NCBI GenBank assembly: GCA_964545165.1
Contig: CAZJEQ010000005.1
Coordinates: 7,072-71,071, forward strand
From: an uncultured Candidatus Saccharibacteria bacterium
GTDB lineage: Bacteria > Patescibacteriota > Minisyncoccia > Phycocordibacterales > UBA2100
Length of the DNA stretch: 64,000 nt
Direction: 5' to 3'
Numbering within the stretch: the first letter of the stretch is position 1; each line of letters opens with the position of its first letter. The notes under the pieces are model-generated. The model did not search any database and was not told the DNA's origin. It saw only the letters and a program-made list of their open reading frames with translations. The translations under genes and the position numbers were made by a program. Below are positions 3,516 to 63,700 of the stretch, in pieces.

Positions 3516-3517
3516 GT

Positions 3518-4935: not shown

Positions 4936-4937
4936 AG

Positions 4938-11911: not shown

Positions 11912-11912
11912 T

Positions 11913-12884: not shown

Positions 12885-12904
12885 TTATTATTTACGGTAG
12901 CGAT

Positions 12905-14524: not shown

Positions 14525-14550
14525 AGCGGGCTCCTCGCCCGCTCTTTTCA
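14525..14550 (+). terminator. rho-independent terminator
   Basis: GAGCGGGC-tcct-GCCCGCTC hairpin followed by TTTTCA. Confidence 0.6.
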
Positions 14551-14565
14551 CGTTATACTGCCCCG

Positions 14566-23567: not shown

Positions 23568-23674
23568 ATGTACAATTATACCACTCGTTTCTCCTTTGTC
23601 TACGGCCTGTTTCTCTCCCCCAAATCGTCTCAAAGGCCCGAATAGCGCTGCGTACAGCCGCTATACTTATGGCC

Positions 23675-27781: not shown

Positions 27782-28212
27782 GCCTTCTTCGGCTTCTTTT
27801 TGGATTGGCAATTGGCTGATCCGCACTGGCAACCGATCGGGCGAATGAATTCGTCGAAGTACTCCTCGTCGTAATCAATGTAGAGCTCCTCCCCCGCCTG
27901 TATGTCGCGGACCGCGTAGATATTTATGTGCTTTGAGCCATCGTCTTCCTCGTCAATTTCCGCCTCGACACTCGGGTCGCACGAGTGATTGATGTACTTG
28001 GCCGTATTGTCGTCGGTATCACCATTGAGGGTGACTTTCTCGTCGAGTTCAAATAGATAGCGGCCCGGGTGATCATCAGCTTCTTCTGCGGTGAGCGGCA
28101 CGCCGGTGTATTCCAAAATAAACGCCCCCTTTTTGATAGCGGTCTTCGCGAAGAGTCCCTTGCCGACACCTTTTTGCAAGGATTCTTTGATATCGAAATC
28201 TGTGCTTTCCAT
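27778..28212 (-). CDS. SET-domain protein (putative protein-lysine methyltransferase)
   Basis: ORF 27778..28248 trimmed to ATG 28212 (MESTDFDIK...). Motifs NHSCDPS, GEELYIDYDEEY and post-SET CQCGSANC. Confidence 0.7.
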   Translation of the reverse strand: MESTDFDIKESLQKGVGKGLFAKTAIKKGAFILEYTGVPLTAEEADDHPGRYLFELDEKVTLNGDTDDNTAKYINHSCDPSVEAEIDEEDDGSKHINIYAVRDIQAGEELYIDYDEEYFDEFIRPIGCQCGSANCQSKKKPKKA

Positions 28213-28240
28213 CGCGTCGCGAGTATAGCATAATACTGCC

Positions 28241-29500
28241 ATGTCCAAGGGTCAGAAAATCTCCACCGAGCCATACAAGGGTGTCCGCGACTTCTATCCA
28301 GAAGATCAATTCATTCAGCGCTACATGTTTGAGCACATGGAGCGTGTGTGCGAACTCTACGGCTACGAGGAATACAATGCCTCCGTCTTAGAGCCCGCAG
28401 AGATGTATCGTGCGAAGTCGTCCGAGGAGATCGTCAACGACCAGACCTACACCTTTACCGATCGAGGAGAGCGCGAAGTGACGCTGCGCCCTGAAATGAC
28501 ACCGACTTTTGCACGCCTTATCGCTGGCAAGGCACGCGAGATCCCGATGCCTGCTCGCTGGTACTCGATTCAGAATTTCTTCCGCTACGAGCGCCCACAG
28601 CGTGGCCGCGTGCGCGAATTCTGGCAGCTCAATGCCGACATCGTGGGCGCACCGGGCGTCGAAGCAGATGCCGAGGTGATCTCGATGGCACACGCGATTA
28701 TGCGCGCACTGGGCGCTGAGGAGCGTGACTTTGAAATCCGCGTCTCTGATCGTCGCATCCTCGATTCGCTGTTTGATGAGGCAGGTGTCGCCGCAGAGAG
28801 CCGCGCAGAGGTTATGCGCTTGCTTGATCGACGCGATAAGCTCGATAATTTCAAAGAGCAACTCGAGGGCCTCGTCGGCAACGACATCGCCGCGACCCTC
28901 ATCGATAAAATCGACACCGTGACCTCATCGGCGTATCTCGAAGAGCTGCGCATCATCCTCGAGCAGCTCGGCGTGCGCAACATGGTTGTGGACACCAAGA
29001 TCACCCGTGGTTTTGATTACTACACCGGCATGGTCTTTGAGGTCTTCGACACGACGCCAGAGAATCGACGCTCGATGTTTGGCGGCGGTCGCTACGACAA
29101 TCTCCTCGGACTCTTTGGTGGCGAGAAAATCCCCGCGGTCGGCTTTGCGATGGGCGACGTGACGGCACGCGATTTTCTCGAGAGCCACAATCTCATGCCG
29201 GAATACGCGCCGGCGACGGAGCTCATGATCTGCATTGTCGAAGAAAGCGCCACGAGCCACGCCATGCGCCTCGCACAGGATTTGCGCCGAGAAGACGTGA
29301 CAGTGGCGGTGAATTTCTCGGGCAAGAAAATCGGCGACCAGATTCGCCAGGCCGACAAAATGAAAGTGCCGTTTGTCATCGCCGTGGGTGCGCAGGAGCG
29401 CGACAGTGGCCGCTACACTATAAAAAATCTCTCCTCGGGACAGGAAATGACGTTGCCTGCAGATCGGATTTCAGAGCACCTTTTCTCCTCACTCGGCTAA
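28241..29500 (+). CDS. hisS: histidyl-tRNA synthetase
   Basis: 419 aa; ...RYERPQRGR...; class II aaRS motifs. CATAAT 6 nt upstream of ATG. Confidence 0.9.
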   Translation: MSKGQKISTEPYKGVRDFYPEDQFIQRYMFEHMERVCELYGYEEYNASVLEPAEMYRAKSSEEIVNDQTYTFTDRGEREVTLRPEMTPTFARLIAGKAREIPMPARWYSIQNFFRYERPQRGRVREFWQLNADIVGAPGVEADAEVISMAHAIMRALGAEERDFEIRVSDRRILDSLFDEAGVAAESRAEVMRLLDRRDKLDNFKEQLEGLVGNDIAATLIDKIDTVTSSAYLEELRIILEQLGVRNMVVDTKITRGFDYYTGMVFEVFDTTPENRRSMFGGGRYDNLLGLFGGEKIPAVGFAMGDVTARDFLESHNLMPEYAPATELMICIVEESATSHAMRLAQDLRREDVTVAVNFSGKKIGDQIRQADKMKVPFVIAVGAQERDSGRYTIKNLSSGQEMTLPADRISEHLFSSLG

Positions 29501-29516: not shown

Positions 29517-30107
29517 GTGCGTGATATACTCGTCACGATGCGCATCGTGACGTTTGATATTGAAACGGCAAATTGGCTCTCCGAAGGCAATGGCATGCAG
29601 GATCTCAACATCGCGATTGCCTGTATTCACGATTCGGAAACGGATGAGTACTCGAGCTATCTCGAGAGCGAACTGCCCAAGCTCTGGCCGATTCTGGAGC
29701 GCACCGATATGCTCATCGGCTACAACTCCAATCACTTTGATATTCCCCTCCTCAACAAATACTACCCAGGTGATCTGACCAAAATAAAGAGCCTTGATCT
29801 GCTCGTTGAGATTAAAAATACCCTCGGCCGCTCGCTGCGTCTCGATGCGGTTGCCGATGGTACGCTCGGGGTGCGCAAAAGCGGCAGCGGCTCGCAATCG
29901 CTCCAGTGGTGGCGTGCCGGCGAAATCGACAAGGTGCGCCAGTACTGCCTTAAAGACGTGGAGATCACCAAGCGCGTCTACGAGCACGCACTGCAAAAAG
30001 GCTTTCTCAAATACAAGGAGCTCGGACGCTCACACGAGATCAAGATAGATACTTCGAAGTGGCTCACACCGGCGAATCAGCCGATGACCTTCTCGCTCGG
30101 TTTCTAA
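29517..30107 (+). CDS. DEDD-family 3'-5' exonuclease (RNase H-like)
   Basis: GTG start with AGAGGT SD 8 nt upstream; ...VTFDIETA... Exo I motif; YCLKDVE. Confidence 0.65.
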   Translation: MRDILVTMRIVTFDIETANWLSEGNGMQDLNIAIACIHDSETDEYSSYLESELPKLWPILERTDMLIGYNSNHFDIPLLNKYYPGDLTKIKSLDLLVEIKNTLGRSLRLDAVADGTLGVRKSGSGSQSLQWWRAGEIDKVRQYCLKDVEITKRVYEHALQKGFLKYKELGRSHEIKIDTSKWLTPANQPMTFSLGF

Positions 30108-30111: not shown

Positions 30112-30187
30112 TGGTGCCTGGGATCAGATTTGCACTGATGACCCTTCCCTCTTCAGGGGAATGCTCTACTAACTGAGCTACCCAGGC
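30112..30187 (-). tRNA. tRNA-Phe (GAA), CCA encoded
   Basis: Minus-strand sequence GCCTGGGTAGCTCAGTTAGTAGAGCATTCCCCTGAAGAGGGAAGGGTCATCAGTGCAAATCTGATCCCAGGCACCA. 7-bp acceptor, 4-bp D stem, 5-bp anticodon stem with loop CTGAAGA. T-loop reads TGCAAAT, which is non-canonical. Confidence 0.8.
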
Positions 30188-30582: not shown

Positions 30583-30608
30583 TCAGATCATTTTACCACT
30601 CAAATCAT

Positions 30609-30680
30609 TGCCCTCAGCAAGAATCGAACTCACATCGTTCCCTTAGGACGGGACTGCTCTATCCATTGAGCTATGAGGGC
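30609..30680 (-). tRNA. tRNA-Arg (CCT)
   Basis: GCCCTCATAGCTCAATGGATAGAGCAGTCCCGTCCTAAGGGAACGATGTGAGTTCGATTCTTGCTGAGGGCA. 7-bp acceptor, T-loop TTCGATT, anticodon loop GTCCTAA, one G.A at 27-43, no encoded CCA. Confidence 0.7.
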
Positions 30681-30735
30681 ACCGCAAAGGGCGCGTACGC
30701 ACAGCATACGCGCCCGTGAGGATTATTTCCAACGA

Positions 30736-33424: not shown

Positions 33425-33498
33425 TGGTGCGGGATGAGGGAATCGAACCCTCGACCTATGCTTGGGAAGCACATGTTTTACCACTAAACCAATCCCGC
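33425..33498 (-). tRNA. tRNA-Gly (CCC), CCA encoded
   Basis: GCGGGATTGGTTTAGTGGTAAAACATGTGCTTCCCAAGCATAGGTCGAGGGTTCGATTCCCTCATCCCGCACCA; canonical cloverleaf with T-loop TTCGATT. Confidence 0.85.
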
Positions 33499-40032: not shown

Positions 40033-40071
40033 ATTAAAAGCAGAAAAGCGAAGCATTTCTGCTTCGCTTTC
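40033..40071 (-). terminator. intrinsic terminator of rnpB
   Basis: On minus strand GCAGAAAGCGAAGCA-GAAA-UGCUUCGCUUUUCUGC followed by UUUUAAU. Confidence 0.7.
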
Positions 40072-40075
40072 TGCC

Positions 40076-40405
40076 TGCATCGATAAGCCGGATTCTGTCG
40101 TGAGCAGTCATGTATCTGGGATGTGTGTTGCCACACACCTCGAGCGACACTTTCGTCAGGTCCAATTGGTTCCCGACGAACACGGTCTTGCACGCGGGTA
40201 GGATTTTTGCCGTTGCACCCTCTGTGTTTCCACAAAGGCTGATCCATACCTTTCGATAGAGGATCCCCTCGCCTCTCGGCTTGGGCGTCTCTGTTCGCAT
40301 CCCTATGCTTGCGCACGACGGGCGTTACCCGCTACCTTGCTGCTTCTCGCGAAGCGCGTGTCCGGACTTTCCTCCCCTTGCGGGGCGACTGCTTAATGCA
40401 GAGAG
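40076..40405 (-). ncRNA. rnpB: RNase P RNA (bacterial type A)
   Basis: On the minus strand GGGGAGGAAAGUCCGGAC (P4 5' half, complement of 40362-40372) and ACAGAAUCCGGCUUAUCG (P4 3' half, complement of 40087-40101). P3 hairpin CCCC-GCAA-GGGG; P1 pairing CUGCAU/AUGCAG. ORF-track entries 40026..40316 and 40034..40300 overlap it and are spurious. Confidence 0.8.
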
Positions 40406-40722: not shown

Positions 40723-43089
40723 CTAGACGATCTCGCAGGTGCCGCCAGCGCAGGCGAGCTCTTTCTTGAGCTCAGTCTCGTCGGTGCGTTCGTAGATCAC
40801 CAGCTTCGAGTAGTCCATGGTCGGGAAATTCTCGGCAAGACGATCGTAGGTCTTCTTGTCGATGGTCTCGTATGGTGCCAAGCGATAGACGTGATTCTCG
40901 CGCGGGAGAAATGACAGACCGCCGACGATGTCCCAGTTTTCATACAACCAGGAGACCACCGCCACCCACTCTTCTTCGCCGACAGAGATCGTCGCGGATG
41001 GATTATGCTCCGTCCAATTGAGCTTCACCATTTTCCAGTATTCAAGCTGCTGGATCGCGCTCTGATCGTTCTTGTAGATCGATCCCTGCGGTGCTTTGAC
41101 CGGGAACTCCAAGACATAGGTATTCGCCTCGCCCATCGCTTGACCGACTTCCGGGTGGAGCGGAATGCCCTGATCCTTTACCATCTTGAAGAGCGAGTCG
41201 GTTGCGGAGATGCGAACGCGGCGGATGTAGTACTGCGCGTGGCGCGGGTGCAATCCCGATGAGCAGTCGAAAGTCTGGGAGACGGTGCCGGAAGGCTTCA
41301 CACAGGTGATCGAATTCGACATCGGTACACCGAAGCGCTTCGCGTATGTCTGGTTGGTCTTGATGGCAGCGTCGCGCATCTTGCGCATCACCTTGCCATC
41401 GCGCACCGTAGCGCAATCCCACTGACCCGTGATCGAGACACCAAGGAGGCGCTCCTGCTCGCAATTCTCCGTCCAATCCTTGGAAATGTAATTGAATTTG
41501 GTGAGCGTCGACTGGTAGGTGCCGAGGATGGTCGCGAGCTTGGTCTTCCTCAAGAGGCTCGCCTCGGTGTCATCAGCACGTGCGATGACTTCTGAGAGAT
41601 TGCAGAACTGCTTGGACTGCAAGATGATTTCACCGCACGGGTTGGTTCCTACCTGACCGATGTAGCCCTTGAGCTTCTTTCCGTGCTTTTTCTCGAGGAA
41701 TTTGAAGCGACGCTCGGGCATGGTCTTCTCAAGCGCACCGCGGTTGAAAATACCGCGCTCGCCCGAGCCTGATTTCATCAGTGCCACCCATTCATCCATG
41801 AGCTCGGCATTGGTCGGCTTGGTCTCGTAGACGGCGGAGTTGTTCGCCATCGCACGATGACCGTCGGTGAGGAAGAACTGCCCTTTCTTGGCATCGCGGA
41901 GCTCGAGGTCGTCGAGATCCGAGAGCGAGATCATGGCTGAGCGGCGTACGCCACCGGCGACGACGCATTCACCGATTTTGCAGATGATATCGTGTGCATC
42001 GATGTTGCGCAGGCGTCGGCCCTGGCGTCTCAAAATACGCTCGCGAGCAAACACGAGGAGCGAGCGAAGCGGCTCGGGACCCGAGGCTTTGCCGCCCATC
42101 GTTGCGAGGCGCGATCCTGCCGGACGGATGATCGAGTAGTCGAAATCAATATCCTTACCGGCGTACCAAGTCTTGAGCCCAAGCGTGAGCGCATCGCACC
42201 AGCCCTCCTTGGAATCCGCGATAACGTGCGTCGGCAACTTCTCGCCCATTTGCTTCTGAATCTGTGGGAGCTGTTCGATGTTTTGGCTCTCCACGGCGAA
42301 GCCGACGCCCGTCCCCTGCATCGAGAGGTACATGATCTCAGCGAAGTCTTCGAGCTTCACCGGTGCAGTAAATGAGCAGTTGTAGAAGCAGGTGTTGCAC
42401 TTACGAGCCGGTGCACCGGCAAATTGCATCGCGCGCATCGATGGCATGACCTCCTGCTTGAGGATTCCCTCACGCACTTCGGTGTACTCCTTCTTCGTGA
42501 GCTTGTCGCCGAGATTCTCTTTCATAAATTCGACATAGCGGTCGACTGTCTCTACCCAGGTCTCACGGCGCTGTTCGCTCTCGATCCATCGCGCGTAGGT
42601 GCGGAGGTAGATAAATTCACCGAGTGGATTGTTCTTGAAATATTTCTTGGACTCCTCGGCAAGCTTTTTGACGTGCTCGGGCACCTCGCCCTGCTCGACA
42701 CGGATCTTGGAGCGCTCTTCGCGGTACAAGATGAAGCTCTTGGCGGTGGTCACGTAGTCGGAGAGCATGAGCTGGCGCTCAATCTCGTCCTGGCATCCTT
42801 CAACGGTGGGGAGAAAATTCTTGTAGGTCTTGGCAATGCGCATCATCTCGCCGGCAACCTTGTGTCCGACGACGGTGGCCTCGTCGCGCGATCCTTCATT
42901 GGAAGCATTCATCGCTTTTTCGATGACATGCACGATTTTGTCGAATTCAAACGGGACAATACGGCCGTCACGCTTCTGAATATTCGACAAATACTTCTTA
43001 TAGATACGGTTTGAAGATGCTGATGAGCTTTCTGCCGGGGCTGCTAAAGAGCCCGCCTTTTTGGTGCGAGAACCGGTTGATTGTGCCAT
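40723..43089 (-). CDS. nrdJ: class II (adenosylcobalamin-dependent) ribonucleotide reductase with N-terminal ATP-cone
   Basis: ORF begins TTG at 43095; ATG at 43087-89 (MAQSTGS...). ATP-cone N-terminus; TNPCGEI active-site motif. Confidence 0.9.
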   Translation of the reverse strand: MAQSTGSRTKKAGSLAAPAESSSASSNRIYKKYLSNIQKRDGRIVPFEFDKIVHVIEKAMNASNEGSRDEATVVGHKVAGEMMRIAKTYKNFLPTVEGCQDEIERQLMLSDYVTTAKSFILYREERSKIRVEQGEVPEHVKKLAEESKKYFKNNPLGEFIYLRTYARWIESEQRRETWVETVDRYVEFMKENLGDKLTKKEYTEVREGILKQEVMPSMRAMQFAGAPARKCNTCFYNCSFTAPVKLEDFAEIMYLSMQGTGVGFAVESQNIEQLPQIQKQMGEKLPTHVIADSKEGWCDALTLGLKTWYAGKDIDFDYSIIRPAGSRLATMGGKASGPEPLRSLLVFARERILRRQGRRLRNIDAHDIICKIGECVVAGGVRRSAMISLSDLDDLELRDAKKGQFFLTDGHRAMANNSAVYETKPTNAELMDEWVALMKSGSGERGIFNRGALEKTMPERRFKFLEKKHGKKLKGYIGQVGTNPCGEIILQSKQFCNLSEVIARADDTEASLLRKTKLATILGTYQSTLTKFNYISKDWTENCEQERLLGVSITGQWDCATVRDGKVMRKMRDAAIKTNQTYAKRFGVPMSNSITCVKPSGTVSQTFDCSSGLHPRHAQYYIRRVRISATDSLFKMVKDQGIPLHPEVGQAMGEANTYVLEFPVKAPQGSIYKNDQSAIQQLEYWKMVKLNWTEHNPSATISVGEEEWVAVVSWLYENWDIVGGLSFLPRENHVYRLAPYETIDKKTYDRLAENFPTMDYSKLVIYERTDETELKKELACAGGTCEIV

Positions 43090-43160
43090 GCGCAAGAACT
43101 CTAATTTCTAATGGGAGATTCATTGTACTCCTCCTCGTTCTCGGCGAGGCGAGATGAAAA

Positions 43161-43350: not shown

Positions 43351-43878
43351 CTATAAACTTACCTTCTCACCCGTGGAGAGCGCATGAGCACGTACCCAAT
43401 CAGCAGGAAGCTCCAGTACGTAGCGCGCAGCGCGTGGCGGCACATATGCAAGCGGGTAGCTCTCGGGCGTGGCGCTCTCAACGACGTACACGACAGTGCC
43501 ATCGCTCGCGATCCAGACAATATCTATGGGAAACAACATGTCTTTCATCCAAAAGCCGTACTGCCCTTCTTCATCAAAGACAAAGAGCATGCCTTCATTT
43601 TTGCCGAGACCCGTGCGGCCACTGAGGCCCTGCTCGCGCTCTGCGGGAGTATCGACGATATCTACCCGGATACGCTCGCCTTTGATCAAGACCGTGTGCC
43701 CTGCGGGCGCCTGCTGTTCTGCAGAAGTGGCTGCGGGAGGCGCGACGACGATCGGTCGCGAGATGGGAGAGACTGGCGCATGCGTCGGCGTAACGGCGCT
43801 TATCGCCGCAGCGTAGATGCCACCACCTGCCAACGCAACGATGCCGGCAGCACCAAGGTAGATGAAAATGCGTCGCAT
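43351..43878 (-). CDS. DUF192-like secreted/membrane-anchored protein
   Basis: ORF 43351..43959 trimmed to ATG 43878 (MRRIFIYLGAAGIVALAGG...). Confidence 0.55.
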   Translation of the reverse strand: MRRIFIYLGAAGIVALAGGGIYAAAISAVTPTHAPVSPISRPIVVAPPAATSAEQQAPAGHTVLIKGERIRVDIVDTPAEREQGLSGRTGLGKNEGMLFVFDEEGQYGFWMKDMLFPIDIVWIASDGTVVYVVESATPESYPLAYVPPRAARYVLELPADWVRAHALSTGEKVSL

Positions 43879-43927
43879 TTCGGACTGGCCGAAAAAGTCG
43901 TCGAGCATCAGAGAAGTATACCCTTGA

Positions 43928-44022
43928 GATTCCCAGCAGGGAATCAGGCTACACCCCACGTCGCACTCCTGCAGGAGTGCGACCGGGTGTAACTCTTCAA
44001 ATTCTCTGCTGAGAATTTGAAG
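43928..44022. repeat. composite palindromic repeat cluster (A-like hairpin, inverted B-unit, inverted A-unit), left flank of 3-gene islet
   Basis: GATTCCC-agca-GGGAATC (43928-45). ACACCCCACG-[TCGCACTCCTGCAGGAGTGCGA]-CCGGGTGTAAC (43951-93) is an inverted B unit. TTCAAATTCTC-tgct-GAGAATTTGAA (43997-44022) is an inverted A unit abutting the DUF1761 stop. Confidence 0.65.
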
Positions 44023-44023
44023 G

Positions 44024-44428
44024 TTAAATAAAGAGCAAGATCGCAGCTATCATGAGCGCAACAAACCAGTAGCCCCCGTTGATCGCATAGAGCGTGGCTG
44101 ATCGCCCCTCCCACAACACCTGGCTGAGCAGCACCGGTGCGAAAAAGCCCGCCCACACAAACGCGCCGAAGAAGAGCGCATGCACAACACCGTGTATGTG
44201 CATCAGATCGCCGACATGCCGCATGGCGGCTGCGAGTACCAGCGCTGCGACAAGACTCACCAGTGCAAAGAAAAAGCTCTGTCGCACACCGCGCTCCGCC
44301 ATCTCGGGCGTGATATTGGTGAGGCGCATCCACACGCGGCCAAATACCTTGGCGTGATACCACAGATGGCCGAAGAGAAAAATCGCGAGACCCGCCGCGA
44401 GGGTGGGCATGAACGCGAAGAGAGACAT
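44024..44428 (-). CDS. DUF1761-like small membrane protein
   Basis: ORF 44024..44851 trimmed to ATG 44428 (MSLFAFMPTLAAGLAIFLFGHLWYHAKVFG...); the upstream ORF-track portion overlaps the ATP-grasp gene. Confidence 0.5.
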   Translation of the reverse strand: MSLFAFMPTLAAGLAIFLFGHLWYHAKVFGRVWMRLTNITPEMAERGVRQSFFFALVSLVAALVLAAAMRHVGDLMHIHGVVHALFFGAFVWAGFFAPVLLSQVLWEGRSATLYAINGGYWFVALMIAAILLFI

Positions 44429-44447
44429 GCCAATAATGATAGCACTG

Positions 44448-45644
44448 CTACGCTTCCCGCTTCCACAAATCCCACACGGCCCCAGCGACGTTTGAAGGCT
44501 CACCTTCGAGCGGGGCGTGATGCAGATCGATGTACGGCAGCGAATTCGCTTCGAGTATGCCCCAGCGCTGACCATCGGGATCCTGCTCGGGATGCGGAAT
44601 GATGACATCGAAGCCGACGACGGGAGTCTGGAGGAGTGTGGCAGCGCGCTCAATGTGGGCACGCAGTTTTGGATGGATCGCCTCGGGTATCTCGCGCGTC
44701 CTGCCGCCTTCGAAGCGTCCCGTGCGACGTGAGAGCTCGACGATCGTACCCAACGGGACCACCGAGCTACTCGTATAGCCAGATCGGGCGAGGTAGGCAC
44801 GGTGCTCGTCGTCGAGTACGATTTCAGCCACGCGCGCGGGGCGCGAAGCATTCTTCTGCGCGATGAGCGCTTCTATAGAATGTACGCCATCGCCCTCGAG
44901 ACCCACCTGGAACATCTGCAAGAACCCTGCAAGTCGGCCGTCTACGACGGTCGCGCGCGAGACCGCGCCTTCGAGATGCTCTTCGATGAGCACATCTCGA
45001 CAGAGCTGCTTGGCGAGGTCAAACGCCGGCGTCAGGTGCTCAAGCGAGCGAATATTGGTGGTGGTGTGCCGCGCACGCGAGCCAATACGCGGCTTCACGA
45101 CCAACGGCGCAGCGAGCGTCGCGAATGCGCGCGCTGCATCCTGACGCGTGCGTGCCAGCTCGGCGCGCGAGACCGGAATGCCATGCGACGCAAGGAATTG
45201 TTTGAGGCGGTACTTATCATCAATCCCCGCGTACATATCCGCTGCAAGCGATGCAGGAATGGGGAGGCTCTGAAAATATTCCCATCTCCCATTGATGCGC
45301 GCTCGATAAAATTCGCTCGGGTACGAGAGCATCACGAGCTGTTCCATCTCGATACCGCGTCGCTCAGCCTCCTCCCAAATGACCTGCGAGCGATACGAGC
45401 AGGCCTTTTCCGGGTCATGCGAGGAACGTGCGATGCGCAGGAAATGGGCAGCACCCGCGACACGATTGAGCATCTGATCGACGAGCGCATTCGTCTGTCG
45501 CATCCCTGGCATGTTGCCAAACGAGTGGTCGGCCATAAATGCCTCGAGCGATTGCACCAAGTGTGTGGAGAAATGTGGCACCGGCGTATCGCCACAGGCG
45601 GCGCACGCGCCACGCTTCCCCTTGCTCGGTGCCGTAATTTCCAT
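44448..45644 (-). CDS. ATP-grasp ligase (paralogue of 7934..8938)
   Basis: ORF to 45653; second ATG 45644 preferred because TATAAT lies 7 nt upstream. C-terminal ...WGILEANSLPYIDLHHAPLEGEPSNVAGAVWDLW parallels the ...VLEINAAPGLDHY... region of the other copy. Confidence 0.6.
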   Translation of the reverse strand: MEITAPSKGKRGACAACGDTPVPHFSTHLVQSLEAFMADHSFGNMPGMRQTNALVDQMLNRVAGAAHFLRIARSSHDPEKACSYRSQVIWEEAERRGIEMEQLVMLSYPSEFYRARINGRWEYFQSLPIPASLAADMYAGIDDKYRLKQFLASHGIPVSRAELARTRQDAARAFATLAAPLVVKPRIGSRARHTTTNIRSLEHLTPAFDLAKQLCRDVLIEEHLEGAVSRATVVDGRLAGFLQMFQVGLEGDGVHSIEALIAQKNASRPARVAEIVLDDEHRAYLARSGYTSSSVVPLGTIVELSRRTGRFEGGRTREIPEAIHPKLRAHIERAATLLQTPVVGFDVIIPHPEQDPDGQRWGILEANSLPYIDLHHAPLEGEPSNVAGAVWDLWKREA

Positions 45645-45780
45645 AGGACGCATTATAGAAGAAAGCTCCTCTTTCGAGGAGCCTCCTTTTAGTGACCGCC
45701 GCCCATCATATTGGTTGGGTAGTTAGCAACTATGTATTCAGTATCGCATAGGCCAAGCCCCGCGCGATCACGCATGGGGA

Positions 45781-47154
45781 TTACGCATCGGAGCGCGGAG
45801 GGACGTCGAACATAGACGCAGAGACGTCTTCGCCCACGAGATGGCGGGCAATTTTCCTTCCCCCATAGACCGACGGCAAGATACCGACGCCATTGCAGCC
45901 CAGATTGTAGAGCAAGACGGGATTCTGCGGTTCGGGGCCAATGAGACGCATGCGATTCTTGGTGTAGCCCATAAGCCCATGCCAGGTGAACGCGTAATCG
46001 ATCTTGTGATTGGGCTGCAAGCTATAGACGTGGTGGACGAAGGTGTCGATCTTCTCTGCCATTTCATCGGGATATTCATTCTCGAATGAGTACGGTGTGA
46101 TCTCATCAATATCGACATCGGGGCCACCGATTGAGATCAGATTATGCTCGGTTCCTTTTTCGTATTCATACGGACGGCGCGTCAGATACACGTACGGACT
46201 CTCCCCGCCCGGCGTCGGATCGTTGTAGTAGCTGATCGCAATGGGCAACTTATTCATCTTCTCCAAATATCCCGACATATAGCCCACTTTGCCGGTGATG
46301 AGATGGTGATACTTGGCGTCAATATCGAGCCCACTCTCATTGATAATGTGGATGCTCTCGAAGCCGTTGGTGCACAAGACGACGCGACCTGCCGTGATGA
46401 CATGCGTGTCCGCGTCGAGCAGCGCATGATCTGATTTGAGCACGAGCTTATTGACTGGTGTGTGCTCGTAGAGTGCGAAACGATTCGGATTTTTCTTGAG
46501 AAGAAATGTGACGACTTCTTGGCAAAAAAGCGCACTATTCACACAGCCCTTCTGCGACGAGACGACGGCGATATATTCTTCAGCGCTGGTCTCGAGCATG
46601 CCGAGTAGATCCGCACGCGGGATCACATCATAGAGACCGGCGTACTCTTCGGGGATTTCTTTGGCGATCTGCGACTGGTCGGATATATGGAGCATGGCGA
46701 AGCGGACCCCTGCCTGCCGTTTCGCCTGATTGTTCTCGAGATTCCAGAGAACCTGCTCGAGACTCGTGAGTCCGCCGTGTCCTATAAAACGAGAGAACGG
46801 GATGTCGAGCTCTGCATCGGAATACATCTCATCAAGCAGCTCCCACGCATCATCAACCGCCTTTTGGCCAGCTGCTGCTTTCTCTGCTCCGAATTCCTCC
46901 ACCATGCTCGCGAATCCTCGCTCAAAGTAGCTCACTACCTGCCCCGCGTTGTGCCCGGTCGCGCCATGCGCGAGCCGATGCCGCTCCACGAGCGCCACAC
47001 TCTTATCGGTGTATTTGAGCGTGAAATACGCTGTCGCTACCCCGGCAATACCCGCGCCGATAATCGCCACATCCACTGCGGTGTCTGTCGTGAGGCGCTT
47101 GATTTCGCGCTCCTGATCGAGCTGATGGAGCCAGGGAGAATGATTCTTCCGCAT
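45781..47154 (-). CDS. FAD-dependent oxidoreductase (DAO family; glycine/D-amino-acid-oxidase-like)
   Basis: 457 aa, ...VDVAIIGAGIAGVATAY... dinucleotide-binding motif. Confidence 0.75.
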   Translation of the reverse strand: MRKNHSPWLHQLDQEREIKRLTTDTAVDVAIIGAGIAGVATAYFTLKYTDKSVALVERHRLAHGATGHNAGQVVSYFERGFASMVEEFGAEKAAAGQKAVDDAWELLDEMYSDAELDIPFSRFIGHGGLTSLEQVLWNLENNQAKRQAGVRFAMLHISDQSQIAKEIPEEYAGLYDVIPRADLLGMLETSAEEYIAVVSSQKGCVNSALFCQEVVTFLLKKNPNRFALYEHTPVNKLVLKSDHALLDADTHVITAGRVVLCTNGFESIHIINESGLDIDAKYHHLITGKVGYMSGYLEKMNKLPIAISYYNDPTPGGESPYVYLTRRPYEYEKGTEHNLISIGGPDVDIDEITPYSFENEYPDEMAEKIDTFVHHVYSLQPNHKIDYAFTWHGLMGYTKNRMRLIGPEPQNPVLLYNLGCNGVGILPSVYGGRKIARHLVGEDVSASMFDVPPRSDA

Positions 47155-47161
47155 CGCACAA

Positions 47162-47370
47162 GTATAACCTTCAAATTCTCAGCAGAGAATTTGAAGAGTT
47201 ACACCCGGACATATCTCTGCAGAGATATGACGTGGGGCGTCACCTGAAGATTCTCAGCAGAGAATCTCAAGAGTTATGCCCGGACACATCTCTGGAGGGA
47301 TGTGACGTGGGGTATAACCGAAGAGTTACACCCGGACATATCTCTGCGGAGATATGACGTTGGGCATACC
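47162..47370. repeat. composite palindromic repeat cluster (units A1-B1-A2-B2-B3), right flank of islet
   Basis: A is TTCAAATTCTC-agca-GAGAATTTGAA. B is GTTACACCCGG-[22-nt palindrome centred on CTGCAG, CTGGAG or CTGCGG]-CGTGGGG.... Three B copies have cores ACATATCTCTGCAGAGATATGA, ACACATCTCTGGAGGGATGTGA and ACATATCTCTGCGGAGATATGA. Confidence 0.7.
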
Positions 47371-47413
47371 GCAGTATAGAGCCACGTGAGAAAACGTGAT
47401 TTCACGTCGGCAC

Positions 47414-50862: not shown

Positions 50863-51015
50863 CTAATCCTTCTTTTCTGCATCCGAGAATACGCCTCTGA
50901 TGCTTTTGATAGCGTCGCCTATGCCGCGAGCAAGTTCTGGGATCTTCTTAGGACCAAAGATCAACAGAAGAATAGCGGTCAGAATAATGATTTCAGTGGC
51001 TCCAAGTCCAAACAT
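50863..51015 (-). CDS. tatA: twin-arginine translocase subunit TatA/E (copy 1, divergent)
   Basis: Not in ORF track (50 aa): MFGLGATEIIILTAILLLIFGPKKIPELARGIGDAIKSIRGVFSDAEKKD. Its start overlaps tatC 3' end by about 23 nt in another frame. Confidence 0.7.
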   Translation of the reverse strand: MFGLGATEIIILTAILLLIFGPKKIPELARGIGDAIKSIRGVFSDAEKKD

Positions 51016-51724
51016 AAGATCTGCTGCTATTGAATAATATTGTCACTTCATACAACAACACAAGCGGGACTGTCATCGCCGCTAATGATAGGACGTCGGT
51101 TGGTGGAAGTAAAGCTGCCAGCAAGGCGAACACGAAATAGGCTATACGCCTCTTATCCCGGAGCGTCTGGGGTGTCATTATCCCCAGGCGCATGAGGAGC
51201 GTGAGCAGCAATGGGAACTCAAAAACAAACCCCAAGAGCGCTGCTGTGACAAATATTTCAGAGAGAAACTGACTGATATTCCAAATGTTGGCGATTCCGA
51301 GACTCACGTTGATGGCAGCAAAGAGCCCGAGCGCATAGTAAAGAATAAAAAATCCATACACAAAGCCGGCGATGAAGAGTGCGATGCTGACCGGAATTGA
51401 CTTCAATAGCCTGACCTTCTCACTGCTCGTGAGTGCCGGCGCAATAAAGACGTAAAAGCTGTAGATGACATACGGCGCCGAGGCGACGATGGCGAGGAAG
51501 AATCCGACATCCATGGCGACGGTCGCAAACTGGAATGGTGAGGTGGTGGCGATAACCACATCTTCAAAATGGACGAAGCTCAGTGCCTTTTTTAAAATGA
51601 TTCCTGCCGAGAGAAACCCGGTGACGAAAACAGAAATAAACAGAACAACGCCCCAATACAGACGATTGCGCAGATCTTCCAAATAGGGAAGAAATTTTTC
51701 CATGTCCATAGAGAAAGATTCCAA
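50993..51724 (-). CDS. tatC: twin-arginine translocase subunit TatC
   Basis: 243 aa, six TM helices, typical TatC topology. Confidence 0.8.
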   Translation of the reverse strand: MESFSMDMEKFLPYLEDLRNRLYWGVVLFISVFVTGFLSAGIILKKALSFVHFEDVVIATTSPFQFATVAMDVGFFLAIVASAPYVIYSFYVFIAPALTSSEKVRLLKSIPVSIALFIAGFVYGFFILYYALGLFAAINVSLGIANIWNISQFLSEIFVTAALLGFVFEFPLLLTLLMRLGIMTPQTLRDKRRIAYFVFALLAALLPPTDVLSLAAMTVPLVLLYEVTILFNSSRSYVWTWSH

Positions 51725-51849: not shown

Positions 51850-52014
51850 TTATTGTGTCCCCGTCTCCTTCTTGTCACCATCTGAAAACCCACTTCTGAT
51901 GTACTTGAGAGAATCGCCAATGGCTCGTGCAAGTTCTGGAATCTTCTTTGCACCGAAGAGCAGAACGAGGATGCCGGCCAAAATGATGAGCTCTCGAGCT
52001 CCTAATCCAAACAT
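51850..52014 (-). CDS. tatA: TatA/E (copy 2)
   Basis: ORF 51850..52056 trimmed to MFGLGARELIILAGILVLLFGAKKIPELARAIGDSLKYIRSGFSDGDKKETGTQ. Confidence 0.75.
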   Translation of the reverse strand: MFGLGARELIILAGILVLLFGAKKIPELARAIGDSLKYIRSGFSDGDKKETGTQ

Positions 52015-52246
52015 ACTTTTGTATTGCGTCCTAAATTTTATAATGACCAACCTCACACCTATACGAGGTTCGTCTTAATTACTGTGTCCCCGTCTCCTTC
52101 TTGTCACCATCTGAAAACCCACTTCTGATGTACTTGAGAGAATCGCCAATGGCTCGTGCAAGTTCTGGAATCTTCTTTGCACCGAAGAGCAGAACGAGGA
52201 TGCCGGCCAAAATGATGAGCTCTCGAGCTCCTAATCCAAACATACG
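51853..52246. repeat. tandem direct duplication (229-nt unit, 164 nt at 100% identity) carrying tatA
   Basis: 51853-52017 and 52082-52246 match base for base; the spacers differ. Confidence 0.85.
52079..52243 (-). CDS. tatA: TatA/E (copy 3, identical protein to copy 2; not in ORF track)
   Basis: Sequence 52083-52246 is identical to 51854-52017 and encodes the same 54-aa TatA; the only coding difference is a synonymous CAA-to-CAG. Confidence 0.7.
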   Translation of the reverse strand: MFGLGARELIILAGILVLLFGAKKIPELARAIGDSLKYIRSGFSDGDKKETGTQ

Positions 52247-52298: not shown

Positions 52299-53183
52299 CT
52301 ACCCTGCCACTCCCGCTGGCTCGGGCTCGGGAGCTATGACGGGCGTTGATGTCGAGGTTGGCTGCGTTTCTGGCTCTGGTTCTGGTTCGGCCTCAGCCTC
52401 TGGCTCTGCTTCTGCTTCCACTACCGGCTCGGGCTCCGGGTCTGGTTCTGGCTCTGCTTCCACTACCGGCTCCGGGTCTGGTTCGGGCTGCGGCTCTACT
52501 TCTGGCTCCGGTTGTGGCTCAGGTTCAGGTTCAGGATCCGGCTCGGGTTCGGGTTCGGGGTCCGGTGTCGGATTTACTACCGTAATACGATGGCGATTGA
52601 GCCATTCTGCCACCGCGGTCACGCCCGCCTGCCACGAGTCATACGTGCGCGTGTTGCCATCGTCATCATTACCCACGTTGCCGGGATTAGTGGTACTTAC
52701 CGCGAGTCCAACCGTACCGATGCGCGAATCTTGTTCCATGATCGCCACCATGAGTCTCGCATCTACGCTATAGGCGAGCGCAGCACTCATCACCATCTCC
52801 CCTGTTACCGGAGAGGTCGGATATTTGCCCCGAATATACGCTTCGGCTTGCTCTGCAGTATCCATCACCCCCATGGCGGCCAATATATTCATTATCTTCT
52901 CCTCATGCAGGGGGTCGGTCGCATACGAAGTAATGTCGTACTGGCCCAGCACAGCGACCGAGCCGTCGGTGATGACCTCGGCAAGCGACGCATCTTTGAC
53001 CGCCGCTGATGCTGACGCGTCAACCAGGAGACTCAGCTTAAAAAGCGTATCTTCCAGGGAGAGAATTTCTTTCTCAGCCGCGACAACGCGCTCCAAATCG
53101 CCACTCATGGTGGCATAATTTTGAGAAAGTTTGAATTCTCTCAACCTGTTATTGAGAAGTTGCACGAGATCTTCTACTCTCAC
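52299..53183 (-). CDS. peptidoglycan hydrolase (glucosaminidase-family domain) with N-terminal coiled coil and C-terminal (Pro-Glu)n low-complexity tail
   Basis: 294 aa. ...[13 protein letters not shown]...NPGNVG...[18 protein letters not shown] parallels the FlgJ/glucosaminidase motif AQAALESGWG...NLFGIK.... C-terminal roughly 100 aa is [13 protein letters not shown]... Confidence 0.55.
52336..52570. repeat. hexanucleotide-periodic (GGNTCN)n microsatellite-like tract encoding the (PE)n tail
   Basis: ggctctggttctggttcggcctcagcctctggctctgcttc... with period 6 over about 230 nt. Confidence 0.6.
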
Positions 53184-53205
53184 GCAAATATTATATCACG
53201 CGCAT

Positions 53206-56600: not shown

Positions 56601-57148
56601 TCCGTCGTTCCGATTTCGAAATAATCCCCGCGCACTTTAAATAAATTGAGGCGGTTGACCGTGCAGGTACCGGCTTCGTCTCCCACTATTTCGAGCCAGC
56701 CAGCCACATCTGCTCCCGTGGCTGAGGCACTGATACCGGTCAGCGCTCCCGAGCTGTACGCCACCGAATTCCACTGTTTGATCTTGATATACCCCGATGC
56801 GGGCATTGATGCGCCGGTCGCGGTGGAGGCAGCGGTCAGCGCAGAATACACCCCGATCAATTTACCGGACGCACTGCCTTTGGTAATGGTCGTATTCCAC
56901 GCGGGCACGGTACCCGATCCGGTGTTATACGGGATCAGTCGCACGAGTGTGGAATTGACTTCCACCGTACCGCCGAGCGTTGCGGAGAGTGTGACCGTCC
57001 CCCACGAGGCGGAGGTGGTCTGGTTCAGACCGACGCGGGTATCTTGGTCTACCGTCAGGTAGCCACCGTTCACATTGTAGGTATCTCCTCCTCCTTTTGA
57101 GGTCAGCTCGTCTATGTTTTGTGCGGTCGTGACCGTAAACGTCGCCAT
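53663..57148 (-). CDS. very large Thr/Ser/Gly/Ala-rich fibre-like (tail-fibre/adhesin-like) protein, 1161 aa
   Basis: No signal peptide. About 20% Thr. C-terminal triplicated roughly 60-aa module around HGLKTGDIIAV, HGLRVGDTILV and HGMSEGQTIIIRGANQDEYNGTYII. TATAAT 6 nt upstream of ATG. Confidence 0.55.
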   Translation of the reverse strand: MATFTVTTAQNIDELTSKGGGDTYNVNGGYLTVDQDTRVGLNQTTSASWGTVTLSATLGGTVEVNSTLVRLIPYNTGSGTVPAWNTTITKGSASGKLIGVYSALTAASTATGASMPASGYIKIKQWNSVAYSSGALTGISASATGADVAGWLEIVGDEAGTCTVNRLNLFKVRGDYFEIGTTDGNRATTYQIPSSGMLQYHAGVEVETATSSGVYEFYPCAGSLTALAASIATDAVRGKVCWISTAGVLRFGHDGTNSTGGYIVPSGRKIRIPNIFFANCTTAARTANVLPNATLATRFEFATTGGGAIDIDKASIGWYMNINQPYSLALTNVGILTALVATEIASPIAWSNVNVGQEAANTQIALTMSLCFAGGTISGCKWFRAAQAGSGAYVVSLTDVSGLTVTNDFAMSLVKAGNATTGSYSLVRVVTTTYVTPILGGGRALIVGCNTMTFTNTTYFDNPATTTGTALPMYVWDLGTAASYALKFDGLSFGGLTLCQPYSGVLNIGIAGCSNIILRNLGTAASPLDMGGAYVDATWTRSTTTTTVTKTAHGLKTGDIIAVNMCSDVAPKVVTTTTATLWTLASAPTADTFTVTVTNAGQTTGQNLSYYPCMAGALVNFVAGGAANTVKIQRCYTPHLRTGIMTTGDNSVKNLLLEDVWGTEWGVQLVPMLNTQIKGLQSTPALTAQTSTYGTHFLDTYTTNQPANISGVSWSRATTVATVTSTAHGLRVGDTILVTVTSSAAAIVLGVKTLTQITAVASPVNTANTFQFTCLNAGSTSGTLTFVPINGRVALQMNESTSDTSSQVALGGTAAFTSAGGLYMPVVNDNVTFTYPYNLKGHGSFIAAEAVMAGGTLTNYDVTYSVNGGSTFKNLSYPRAGGGGTSGQTNVTMTSTTGVAQNDYVFGTNIAPLAQVQSITNGTTIVVTIANIGTVSGTLRFNQLPNETISASSGTPLKVKISTSTTNATAITSLYMLTNATSTHRAATYPLDTVSVTVTAKDADTLAAIEGARVLMEADTGGPLPANATVTITRSGATASVAHSSHGMSEGQTIIIRGANQDEYNGTYIISNVTTNAYDYTVSGSPATPATGTVTSTAVILSGLTGSNGKVTTSSFEYSASQPVTGKIRKGSAATYYKTSTIVGTITATGLDTTVLMIADQ

Positions 57149-57161
57149 GTCACCATTATAA

Positions 57162-57317
57162 TCATTTTATAATGATAATGCGTCCGTCTTGTGTGTCCTG
57201 GCACGTGAGCGAGCCCGCGACCTCTTGATTGCCGTGGACATTGACGTACACAGTACTATCGCCTGGCATCGTGGCCAGCATATTGGAGAGGCTGTTGACG
57301 AGTGCTTGGAGTTTCAT
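57162..57317 (-). CDS. possible 51-aa protein between zinc-ribbon gene and giant fibre gene (not in ORF track)
   Basis: MKLQALVNSLSNMLATMPGDSTVYVNVHGNQEVAGSLTCQDTQDGRIIIIK; starts 8 nt after the zinc-ribbon gene stop. Confidence 0.3.
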   Translation of the reverse strand: MKLQALVNSLSNMLATMPGDSTVYVNVHGNQEVAGSLTCQDTQDGRIIIIK

Positions 57318-60783: not shown

Positions 60784-63700
60784 TGGATAATCGCGCCATC
60801 AAAATCTCAAGCTATTTTTTCTTGGCGCTTTTTGTTTTTTGTTTTTGCGCGACCGATATTGCATATGCCAGTTATCAAAAGATCGCTCCGGGCGATACGG
60901 TCACGTTGGGTGAATTTGTCTTTGACGATAATTTTGTCCCGACCACAACGCCGTGCACTATCGGTATAACCAGCCCTGCGAATGTCGAGGTGGTGCCTTC
61001 GACCACGCCCATGACTGCCAACAGTGACGGCTGGCACTACTATTCCTACACGACCGCCTCCAATGCAGCTTCCGGTGTCTGGCCATCGGTGATGATCTGC
61101 GGATCAACGGCAGCCGGTGACAGGGTTTTGGTGGACAAAAGCTTTATCGTTGATTGGTCGGTGGTCTCGACGAGCACTATTAAAGGAGTGGTGGACGGCA
61201 GCCTGACGGTGGCGACGACATCGCTCTCGGCAGTCATCAACGCCAACACCAACGCCGCCGTACTATCCGCTTCATCAAGCTTGTACGCGACCCTTCCCGC
61301 TACGATCTGGTCGTTCAGCGGTAGGACGCTCACTTCTTTTGGATCGCTCGTGGCTGATACTGCCGCTGCCGTGTGGGCATCCGGCACGCGCTCCCTCACC
61401 ACCTTCGGCTCGCTCGCAACTGAGATCTGGGCAAGCGCGACCCGCACACTTACAGGCGCGGGCTTGGATACCGGCTCACTTGCCACCCTGTCCGACGTGC
61501 AGACAGCCACGAGTAGCTTGGCTTCTGCAATTACGGCAGGTACGAGTGCCGTCAATAGCAATACGAATACACAGGTCTTGAGCGCCTCATCATCACTCGC
61601 TGCAGCGATTACAGCTGGTACAAGTGCTGTTAACAGCAACACGAATGCGCAGCTGCTCGCCGCGTCCACGTCACTCGCGAATTTCATCAACAGCAATAGC
61701 AATGCGACGATTCTTGCGGCATCGACATCACTTGCAGCCTACCTTAGTGCACACACCGACGCGGCGTCAACATCGATTGCCACCTTCGTGAACGCAAACA
61801 CCAACAACACGGTATTAGCCGCCTCGACATCGATCGCTGCGTTTGTGAATGCGAATACCAATGCGCAACTCCTTGCAGCCTCTACGTCGCTTGCCACCTT
61901 CGTGAATGCGAATACCAACAACGCCGTATTCATGGCGTCGACATCCCTGGCTTCTGCCATTACTGCGGGTACGAGTGCGGTGAATACGAATACCAACAGC
62001 ACGGTATTGGCTGCTTCCACATCTCTCGCCACCTTCGTAAATGCGAATACCAATAGCGCGGTGTTGGCAGCATCCACCTCACTCGCCACATCGATTCCGA
62101 TCAATGTATGGAATGCCACGAGCCGCTCGCTCACCACCTTCGGCACACTCGTGAGCGATGTTGCCTCAGCTGTGTGGTCCTCGGGCACGCGCTCCCTCAC
62201 CACCTTCGGATCGCTCGCAACTGAGATCTGGGCAAGCGCGACACGTACGCTCACCGGCGCAGGACTCGATACAGGTTCACTTGCCACTGTCTCTGATGTA
62301 CAAACGGCCACGAGTAGCTTGGCTTCTGCGATTACGGCAGGTACGAGTGCCGTCAATAGCAATACGAATAGCACCGTATTGGCGGCATCCACTTCACTCG
62401 CGAATTTCATCAACAGCAACAGCAATGCGACCATCCTTGCGGCATCTACCTCACTCGCCGCGTACCTCAGCGCTCACACCGACGCGGCGTCCAGCTCGAT
62501 CGCTTCGTTTGTAAATGCAAACACCAACAGCACCGTGTTAGCCGCGTCGACATCGATCGCATCGTTCGTGAACGCTAATACCAATGCGCAAGTCCTGAGC
62601 GCTTCCTCATCTCTCGCTGCAGCTATTACGGCAAGCACGGGCGCGGTGAATACGAATACCAACAGCGCGGTGTTGGCAGCATCTACCTCGCTCGCCACCT
62701 TCGTAAATGCGAATACGAACAATGCAGTGTTGGTGGCTTCCACATCACTCGCTTCAGCGATTACAGCAGGCACGAATGCCGTGAATACGAATACAAATGC
62801 TGCCGTATTGTCGGCTTCATCAAGCTTGTACGCGACCCTTCCCGCTACGATCTGGTCGTTCAGCGGTAGGACGCTCACCTCGTTCGGTACGCTTGTGAGC
62901 GACGTGACTGCTGCAGTGTGGGCCTCGGGCACGCGATCCCTCACCACCTTCGGCTCGCTCGCCACTGAGATCTGGACCAGCGCGACCCGCACACTTACAG
63001 GCGCGGGACTGGATACCGGCTCGCTCGCGACCGTCTCTGATGTGCAAACGGCGACGAGCTCGCTCGCTTCTGCCATCGTGGCCGGAACGAGCGCAGTGAA
63101 CAGCAACACGAATGCGCAGTTGCTCGCCGCGTCCACGTCGCTCGCGACCTTCATCAACAACAATAGCAATGCGACCATCCTTGCAGCATCGTCATCGCTC
63201 GCGGCGTATCTCAGCGCTCACACCGATGCGGCGTCAACATCGATTGCCACCTTCGTGAACGCAAACACCAACAACACGGTATTGGCAGCCTCAACATCGA
63301 TCGCTGCGTTTGTGAATGCGAATACCAACAACACTGTGTTGGCAGCGTCTACGTCACTGGCCTCTGCAATTACCGCCGGAACGAGCGCGGTGAATAGCAA
63401 TACCAATAGCACCGTATTAGCCGCGTCCACATCGCTCGCTTCAGCAGTTGCGGCAGGTACGATTGCAGTGAACAACAATACCAACAGCGCCGTGTTGGCA
63501 GCATCTACGTCGCTTGCCACATCGATCCCGCTCAACGTCTGGAGTGCGACGAGTCGCTCGCTCACCAGCTTCGGCACACTTGTGAACGATGTGGCCACCG
63601 CAGTGTGGTCCTCGGGCACCCGCTCCCTCACCACCTTCGGATCGCTCGCCACTGAGATCTGGACGAGCGCGACACGTACGCTGACGGGTGCAGGGCTCGA

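Follow-up and report, generated by a model that had tools for sequence, protein, structure and literature searches.

Two clusters of hairpin-forming repeats lie in inverted orientation on either side of a three-gene islet in a 64,000-nt stretch (hereafter the window) of contig CAZJEQ010000005.1 from an uncultured Candidatus Saccharibacteria bacterium (assembly GCA_964545165.1, positions 7,072 to 71,071 of the forward strand), and they raise the question of whether such repeats mobilise the genes that they bracket, serve their host, or spread on their own account. Our analyses favour, with moderate confidence, a non-autonomous, REP/BIME-like hairpin element that acts at the DNA level and either inserts directionally at -10 boxes or carries one. 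Dispersed repeat families have rarely been described in the tiny, compact genomes of the candidate phyla radiation (CPR)/Patescibacteria. We found none reported for this clade in the literature, and nothing relevant on such repeats or on leaderless transcription in Saccharibacteria, CPR or Patescibacteria.

The repeat unit is approximately 75 nt long and reads, in order, ACC, hairpin A, GA and hairpin B. The consensus of hairpin A is TTSARATTCTC-AGCA-GAGAATYTSAA, and hairpin B consists of GTTAYRCCCGG, a 22-nt palindromic core and CGTKGGGYRTAAC. In the window, the units form an A-B-A-B-B cluster at 47162-47370 and a second cluster, made of A' and an inverted B-A, at 43923-44021 (Table 1). The initial annotation, made from the letters alone, had proposed the two hairpin types, the order of the right cluster, and a reverse-complemented B-A module beside the DUF1761 stop together with one more A-like hairpin. 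Every one of its sequence statements held on re-reading of the clusters, including the compensatory change from ATATC/GATAT in B1 to ACATC/GATGT in B2 and the wholly different core of the left B (TCGCACTCC-TGCA-GGAGTGCGA), which is unrelated to the cores of the right cluster. The loop of the inverted A reads TGCT on the + strand, and 2 nt separate this hairpin from the DUF1761 stop codon (44024-44026). In the right cluster, the GAAGA in front of B3 corresponds to the last 5 nt of an A arm plus the linker, and the 3' flank of B3 is degenerate (CGTTGGGCATACC). The B flank pattern has four matches in the window (0.01 expected by chance), and a repeat search recovered a 75-nt direct family and an 83-nt inverted pair. 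Compared with shuffled sequences, both clusters fold strongly as RNA on either strand (z = -7.6 to -10.4). As single-stranded DNA, A1 (z = -7.9), the left B (z = -4.4) and A' (z = -4.6) do so as well, and the three B units of the right cluster are marginal (z about -2 to -3). No further copy was found in the 64-kb window by a covariance model built from nine units and run with filters off.

Copies in other genomes were sought by scanning for the exact pattern in 185,579 species, each represented by one genome, and in JGI metagenomes; contigs encoding homologues of element-adjacent proteins were then fetched and scanned with the covariance model (loci are numbered L001 to L015 below). The species-level scan returned only L001-L003, which belong to one metagenome-assembled genome (MAG) deposited as 'uncultured Candidatus Saccharibacteria', and L003 bears a further copy, giving four arrays in this MAG. 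The metagenome scan returned one Hainich groundwater contig (L004), and the covariance model found two copies in L013, one in L014 and, right where contig L012 begins, a truncated one; L005-L011 and L015 had none. Five further CPR assemblies thereby contributed 15 B and 12 full A-B units, and six assemblies together had 12 arrays at unrelated intergenic sites. The named homologues of the neighbouring proteins come from Kaiserbacteria, Paceibacterota or Parcubacteria, so the host clade is CPR/Patescibacteria whatever the label of one MAG. Within one Parcubacteria/Kaiserbacteria-like CPR clade, the family has members scattered over unrelated loci in no fewer than six assemblies. The proposal of a dispersed repeat family of the REP/BIME/MITE kind is thus borne out by copies in L001-L004 and L012-L014 and by structure-preserving compensatory variation, and no already named family accounted for it. 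The right array had no blastn match in E. coli genomes (which host REP, BIME and ERIC), PLSDB plasmids or phages. Two matches on viral contigs were rejected as chance, lying inside coding sequence with covariance-model scores at the level of noise. Whether at gathering score or at E <= 10, Rfam had no match in the region, and one chance snoRNA match lay elsewhere in the interval.

What the arrays share is their position. At every array located at a gene promoter, the A end lies 3 nt from a TATAMT hexamer and the gene is on the strand opposite to the element. The junction ...GAAGG-N-TATAMT-N6-7-ATG was present in 11 of 11 element-bearing promoters (the scan patterns had left out the ATG), namely those of the FAD oxidoreductase (FAD-ox) and DUF192 genes in the window, FAD-ox in L012, HIT in L001, MsrB in L002, holB in L003, HPF in L003, L004 and L013, PBP2 in L013 and the MBL hydrolase in L014. 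At a twelfth junction (44022-44029), the A end of the left inverted unit abuts a -10-like TTAAAT (44024-44029) that belongs to no gene start and overlaps the DUF1761 stop codon. Each of the 12 junctions consists of KTAWAM and then the ACC-A of the element, in a single orientation throughout. A' likewise has the orientation of every other array relative to its own -10, and internal unit junctions bear the same TTATAC. The neighbour on the far side of an array is a co-directional gene, met at its 3' end, or else a divergent promoter. The element-bearing genes have no common functional theme, and a regulon was therefore rejected.

Many genes in the window start with TATAMT-N6-7-ATG, with neither a Shine-Dalgarno sequence nor a -35 consensus (examples in Table 1), and FAD-ox orthologues in L005, L006, L007 and L011 likewise have TATAMT-N6-7-ATG. 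A sigma-70 promoter scan of 43.3-47.6 kb returned no promoters. From these gene starts we infer a leaderless, -10-only promoter architecture in this genome. The -10 boxes exist at empty sites, and their type is specific to the gene at filled and empty sites alike (TATAAT for HPF and TATACT for MBL). Terminator hairpins here normally run straight into the next -10, as at 45665-45682, followed by TATAAT at 45652-45657.

Palindromy is kept in the family as the sequence varies. In the alignment of the 12 full units (labelled A2), 91% of the cells in the 28 proposed pairs were complementary. Shuffling of columns gave 84%, and sliding of the partner 32-53%. Changes on both sides occurred in 11 of the 28 pairs, including seven of the eight B-core pairs, and RNAalifold on nine units agreed. 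The compensatory pairing noticed in the window therefore extends to a larger alignment. The inner A stem-loop (ATTCTC-ARCA-GAGAAT), GAGTTA..CCCG and G..T.GGG are invariant or nearly so, and the covarying positions comprise the outer A arms (TTCAA/TTGAA, TTGAG/CTCAA and TTCAT/ATGAA) as well as the YR dinucleotides in the B flanks and the entire B core. Two subfamilies are each common to different genomes: one combines core CGCACTCC or CATATCTC with flank GTTACACCC, the other core CACATCTC or CACGCCGC with flank GTTATGCCC. Neighbours within one array differ in core/flank subfamily (R1 and R2, L003a and L003b, L001a and L001b), which argues for successive insertions rather than local tandem duplication. 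Two B-only units are known, both distal. The notion that proximal units are always the most intact was not kept as a general rule, being true of the right array of the window and of L001 and false for L003.

The kind of pairing bears on whether the hairpins are read as DNA or as RNA. Helices A and B-core contain 202 Watson-Crick cells, 2 G.T and 5 A.C, with no strand asymmetry between G.T and A.C. In the B outer stem the asymmetry is weak (8 G.T versus 3 A.C on the + strand of the element, apart from one invariant G/T column). Furthermore, the arrays of L001, L003, L004 and L014 lie between divergent promoters. Together with these sites, the near absence of G.T in two solid helices argues for DNA rather than RNA, and the almost purely Watson-Crick pairing points to a DNA palindrome, not a typical structured RNA. 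Selection on DNA or RNA structure had been suggested without a choice between the two; the scarcity of G.T argues for DNA.

Orthologous promoters differ in whether they carry the element. The FAD-ox promoter is filled in the window and in L012 and empty in L005 (87% amino-acid identity), L006, L007/8 and L011, and the empty sites keep their own TATAMT-N6-7-ATG. The MBL promoter is filled in L014 and empty in L013. At the holB/DUF948 site, L014 is empty (CATggcgtcAGTATACTactcgtATG), and L003 has a two-unit array between AGTATA, which is followed by the ACC of the array, and TATACT. The HPF promoter is filled in L003, L004 and L013 and lacks the element in L014, where HPF directly follows the MBL stop codon (TGAccATG), and in L015, where the -10 is present. 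These filled and empty states show gain and loss of the element at orthologous promoters. The gene order is tRNA, element and HPF in L004 (780-845) and tRNA, MBL, element and HPF in L013 (95-940); the L004 element keeps an extra flank remnant, GGGCATACC, beside it, and L014 has an element upstream of MBL. This suggests that the MBL gene of L004 was deleted by recombination between two direct elements. Two further sequences were seen at such promoters. A single palindromic AGTATACT at 7706-7732 of L014 is apparently the -10 of both the divergent leaderless DUF948-like and holB genes, whose ATGs are 20 bp apart. At 4060-4085 of L015, the sequence ACAGAGTGCAAAGGGTATAAT, which precedes HPF, is similar to the loop and right arm of a decayed A, fused with the -10, and may be the relic of an element.

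With REP, BIME and REPIN sequences, the family shares short, extragenic, imperfect palindromes that are dispersed, grouped into modular arrays, restricted to a lineage and retained over long divergence, with presence that varies at orthologous sites, compensatory stem variation and hairpins presumably read as DNA. Those sequences are mobilised by RAYT transposases in Enterobacteria and Pseudomonas (PMC3116915, PMC3337134, bioRxiv 10.1101/2022.05.22.493013). The GT(A/G)G head of REPs is, however, missing here (in the 12-unit alignment, A starts with ACC-TTSAR and B with GTTAYRC), and B, in place of two inverted REPs, consists of one long palindrome. Hairpins A and B are not related to each other, follow in direct order and form no inverted doublet, an inverted unit being present only in the left cluster of the window. 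The elements lie 5' of genes against a -10, whereas REPs are mainly located at gene 3' ends, and neither the 64-kb window nor the fetched loci yielded a RAYT. Correia elements (CREE/NEMIS) are likewise non-autonomous intergenic elements of about 100 nt that differ in presence between related genomes, and in Neisseria their ends and TA-rich target form or touch -10 boxes, so that they lie at promoters of unrelated genes (PMC2649163). CREE nevertheless have terminal inverted repeats of about 26 bp, a TA duplication and either orientation (PMC2649163). The unit here lacks terminal inverted repeats and any demonstrable duplication, and it keeps one orientation relative to the -10.

Palindrome-associated elements (PATEs) of the IS200/IS605 group (IS608/ISDra2) move by single-strand HUH transposition, insert in a fixed orientation beside a short specific motif and have hairpins at both ends, with neither terminal inverted repeats nor target duplication; one TnpA normally reads similar hairpins at both ends, which also resemble the ends of a full-length IS with tnpA/tnpB. 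The hairpins, the lack of terminal inverted repeats and of any clear duplication, and the fixed motif in one orientation agree with such elements, as does the resemblance of KTATA to the 3' end of the element itself. By contrast, A and B are dissimilar, there is no evident guide-sequence arrangement and no tnpA or tnpB was found in any locus, so that IS200/IS605 derivatives are matched only in part. BOX elements of Streptococcus pneumoniae, which have the order A-B(n)-C and are thought to act as RNA, are similar in their distinct boxes, variable module number, intergenic location near promoters and strong potential for secondary structure. They have no sequence similarity to the unit, and we know of no -10 anchoring described for BOX. 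Integron attC sites also combine conserved flanks with a variable palindromic centre, keep structure over sequence and occur in arrays that may grow promoter-proximally, and GTTAYRC/GYRTAAC matches GTTRRRY/RYYYAAC at six of seven positions. An attC site, however, reads 5'-RYYYAAC...GTTRRRY-3' with GTT innermost, in a single array next to intI/attI with the sites separated by cassette ORFs. Here the boxes run 5'-GTTAYRC...GYRTAAC-3' with GTT outermost, on which ground attC was rejected; moreover, the sites are scattered at many promoters, with no cassettes and no integrase in the window ORF scan. What is distinctive of the family is a lineage-specific modular hairpin repeat with strict, oriented anchoring to leaderless -10 boxes in a CPR clade.

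In the mechanism that we favour, a putative enzyme would insert the element directionally, immediately upstream of -10 boxes, and may recognise a (K)TATA motif that resembles the element's own B 3' end (GGGGYRTAAC). The host would use -10-only promoters for leaderless mRNAs and, as these promoters have no -35, the slot just upstream of the -10 would tolerate insertion. Repeated insertion at one slot would build arrays of unlike units, in which older, distal units would lose A and then decay. The hairpins would be read by a mobilising or binding protein, so that palindromy would be kept while the core sequence drifts, and the conserved A stem-loop and B 5' flank would be its putative contact sites. 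The repeats would not mobilise the three-gene islet, and the two clusters would simply mark the FAD-ox and DUF192 promoters.

Several observations weigh against this explanation. No transposase, RAYT, recombinase or integrase was found among about 57 ORFs of the window, nor a transposase, RAYT or recombinase in about 100 kb of relatives, including 10 ORFs of L003. Terminal inverted repeats are absent from the alignment of 12 units, in which one end of the unit (ACCTTSARATT...) is not the inverted copy of the other (...CGTGGGGYRTAAC). A consistent target duplication is also missing: TATA/AGTATA is present at both ends of the right array of the window and of L003a/b, and most distal array ends read CATA, which is explained by pairing with TATG of the B 5' flank. 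Only 12 arrays are known. The HPF gene of L014 has neither element nor -10, and the element might accordingly supply a -10 instead of targeting one. Finally, the three HPF-locus copies (L003, L004 and L013) have a private core type in common and are therefore probably orthologous, and they are 86-89% identical, compared with about 75% for HPF coding DNA and about 47% for third codon positions. Conservation of this degree fits concerted evolution or a host function under selection more readily than passive junk. Differences between the three copies cluster in the B core and 3' flank, where the B-core changes are uncompensated, and hardly any affect A, the linker or the B 5' flank. One half of resident copies is thus constrained in sequence, with core palindromy decaying after fixation. 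The pattern fits hairpins that matter for copying and a putative protein-binding half that is kept; it suggests a copying process behind the B core and selection on the copies for A and the B 5' flank.

The conservation at the HPF locus is the main support for a host function, that is, for a host cis-regulatory promoter module which was duplicated to several promoters and is kept by selection. We consider this explanation possible, though rather unlikely. With centres near -28 for the invariant ATTCTC-ARCA-GAGAAT and near -66 for the palindrome of B, the two would be either sites of a transcription factor or nucleoid protein, or cruciforms that tune the melting of the adjacent -10-only promoter or insulate it from read-through. 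In its favour are the position relative to the -10, fixed in all arrays, the constancy of A, linker and B 5' flank at HPF despite saturated synonymous divergence, and the strictly Watson-Crick, strand-symmetric pairing, as for a dimer site or cruciform. Terminator hairpins in this genome also normally abut the next -10, and a scan scored A1 with TTATACTTGT as terminator-like. Nevertheless, the downstream genes lack a functional theme, extra A-B units lie far upstream in arrays and one inverted unit abuts the gene-less TTAAAT, and the same promoters work element-free in close relatives. Furthermore, the variable, compensated B cores would be unexpected for a sequence-specific operator, and the uncompensated decay of the B core at HPF argues against selection for a cruciform in resident copies.

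A bolder version of the insertion hypothesis, which we think unlikely, holds that a mobile hairpin element, probably of the single-strand-DNA type, homes directionally to leaderless -10 regions in CPR by means of a putative, vertically inherited enzyme, and that it rewires transcription units. The bidirectional -10 of L014 would have been split in L003, a formerly co-transcribed HPF would have received its own promoter, and MBL would have been lost between copies in L004.

The element might alternatively work as RNA, as a 3'-untranslated-region stabiliser or terminator of the upstream gene, a role proposed for REPs, or as a small RNA divergent from the quasi-palindromic -10. In its favour, RNA folding is very strong on both strands, five arrays (the right and left clusters of the window, L003c, L013a and L013b) have the end of a co-directional gene just upstream, and the B outer stem has more G.T than A.C on the + strand of the element. 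We nonetheless regard this explanation as improbable, since the two well-supported helices have essentially no G.U pairs, Rfam gave no match, and no mRNA would cross the L001, L003a/b, L004 and L014 arrays between divergent gene starts. The hairpins are not followed by a T run, the -10 itself excepted: a terminator scan scored only A1 on the - strand, with the -10 region as T-rich tail. Moreover, the 'TATAAC' of the + strand is without the conserved final T of a -10, and orientation is fixed by the downstream promoter, not by the upstream transcript.

The initial annotation had stressed that the inverted A-B modules bracket the FAD-ox, ATP-grasp and DUF1761 genes. Each of these genes has its own TATMAT-N6-7-ATG, and the GC content of the islet is not distinct from its surroundings. 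Among relatives, L005 has all three genes and L007/8 FAD-ox and ATP-grasp with no element upstream, L009 has DUF1761 directly after FAD-ox with neither ATP-grasp nor element, and L012 has an element upstream of FAD-ox only. It is very improbable that the modules act as ends or recombination sites for a mobile or invertible islet of 3.3 kb. In favour of such an islet, the stretches 43944-44026 and 47165-47247 are the arms of an inverted repeat of 83 nt with 83% complementarity, two of the A hairpins are identical apart from loop orientation and the FAD-ox neighbourhood varies among relatives. Against it, the islet genes occur element-free elsewhere, no inverted islet was seen, no recombinase is nearby in the window ORF scan, and the elements of L003 and L013, which lie 4-10 kb apart with ordinary housekeeping genes around them, share one direct orientation. 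The clusters are better explained by their own -10 anchors (47161-47166 and 43915-43920), and the bracketing is probably incidental, two neighbouring promoters having each acquired elements.

If insertion at -10 boxes is the right explanation, the family would be a compact natural example of promoter-targeted insertion and would mark -10-only leaderless promoters in genetically intractable organisms. The element would also explain breaks in MAG assemblies, contig L012 starting inside hairpin A. It would provide a handle for finding the mobilising enzyme, for tracing strain-level variation, and for separating selection on copies from the copying process alone in the upkeep of palindromy.

Table 1. 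Repeat units, promoter anchors and neighbouring genes of the two clusters (window positions; gene assignments by Pfam; bits are covariance-model scores).
Feature	Position	Strand	Description
DUF192 gene	43351-43908	-	Pfam
DUF192 start, anchor of left cluster	43906-43920	-	ATG 43906-43908, spacer TCTCTG, TATACT 43915-43920
A'	43923-43945	+	CTTGAGATTCCC-AGCA-GGGAATC; promoter-proximal, right arm truncated
Left inverted full unit	43947-44023	-	A 43996-44021 and B 43947-43993; 103.6 bits
DUF1761 gene	44024-44428	-	Pfam
ATP-grasp gene	44448-45644	-	Pfam
DAO-type FAD oxidoreductase gene	45781-47154	-	Pfam
FAD oxidoreductase start, anchor of right array	47152-47166	-	ATG 47152-47154, spacer TGTGCG, TATACT 47161-47166
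Unit R1	47167-47243	+	ACC, A1, GA, B1; 104 bits
A1	47170-47195	+	TTCAAATTCTC-AGCA-GAGAATTTGAA; perfect 11-bp arms, loop AGCA
B1	47198-47243	+	Core ACATATCTC-TGCA-GAGATATGA
Unit R2	47244-47318	+	A2 and B2; other subfamily than R1; 80.7 bits
A2	47245-47270	+	TGAAGATTCTC-AGCA-GAGAATCTCAA
B2	47273-47318	+	5' flank GTTATGCCC, core ACACATCTC-TGGA-GGGATGTGA
Unit R3	47319-47372	+	B-only (B3 47325-47370, no A); 40.8 bits
AGTATA	47373-47378	+	TATACT on the - strand; second copy of the -10 hexamer at the distal array edge; possibly a target duplication or the original -10
Short hairpin	47387-47407	-	ACGTGA-AA-TCACGT then TTTTCTC, read from the sequence; likely the terminator of the upstream 685-aa gene, host sequence beyond the right array
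TATAMT-N6-7-ATG examples	10660-10676, 14550-14568, 23660-23677, 29523-29540, 45642-45657, 53183-53200, 57148-57165		

Other perfect palindromes, unrelated to the family, occupy intergenic slots at 4722-4770 of L013 (GAATCTTGAAT-N9-ATTCAAGATTC), 1652-1689 of L005 (ATAACACTCTAAA-N11-TTTAGAGTGTTAT) and 3893-3926 of L007 (CTCAATCTCATGTCCAGCTGGACATGAGATTGGG), and the related genomes may hold further families of hairpin repeats. Between two element loci of L003, a stand-alone 94-aa protein with a GIY-YIG nuclease domain is encoded at 4726-5007 (-), with no link to the repeats seen. Elsewhere in the window, four tandem paralogous ORFs of about 220-230 aa at 61046-63871 (-) have internal repeats of 57, 78 and 102 nt and no Pfam match. 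Three tatA-like genes (50863-51015, 51850-52015 and 52079-52243, -) lie around tatC (50993-51724), the last two being a 229-nt tandem duplication with 99% identity. CPR organisms often lack nucleotide biosynthesis; at 783-7907, 11351-14173 and 40723-43095, the window encodes purM-like, purE, purK, purQ, purL, dCTP deaminase, thyA, glyA and a class II ribonucleotide reductase. The RNase P RNA (class A, 40068-40404, -) and the genes for tRNA-Phe (30112-30187), tRNA-Arg(CCT) (30608-30681) and tRNA-Gly(CCC) (33425-33498, -) are ordinary, and a SET-domain (lysine methyltransferase-like) protein is encoded at 27781-28248 (-).

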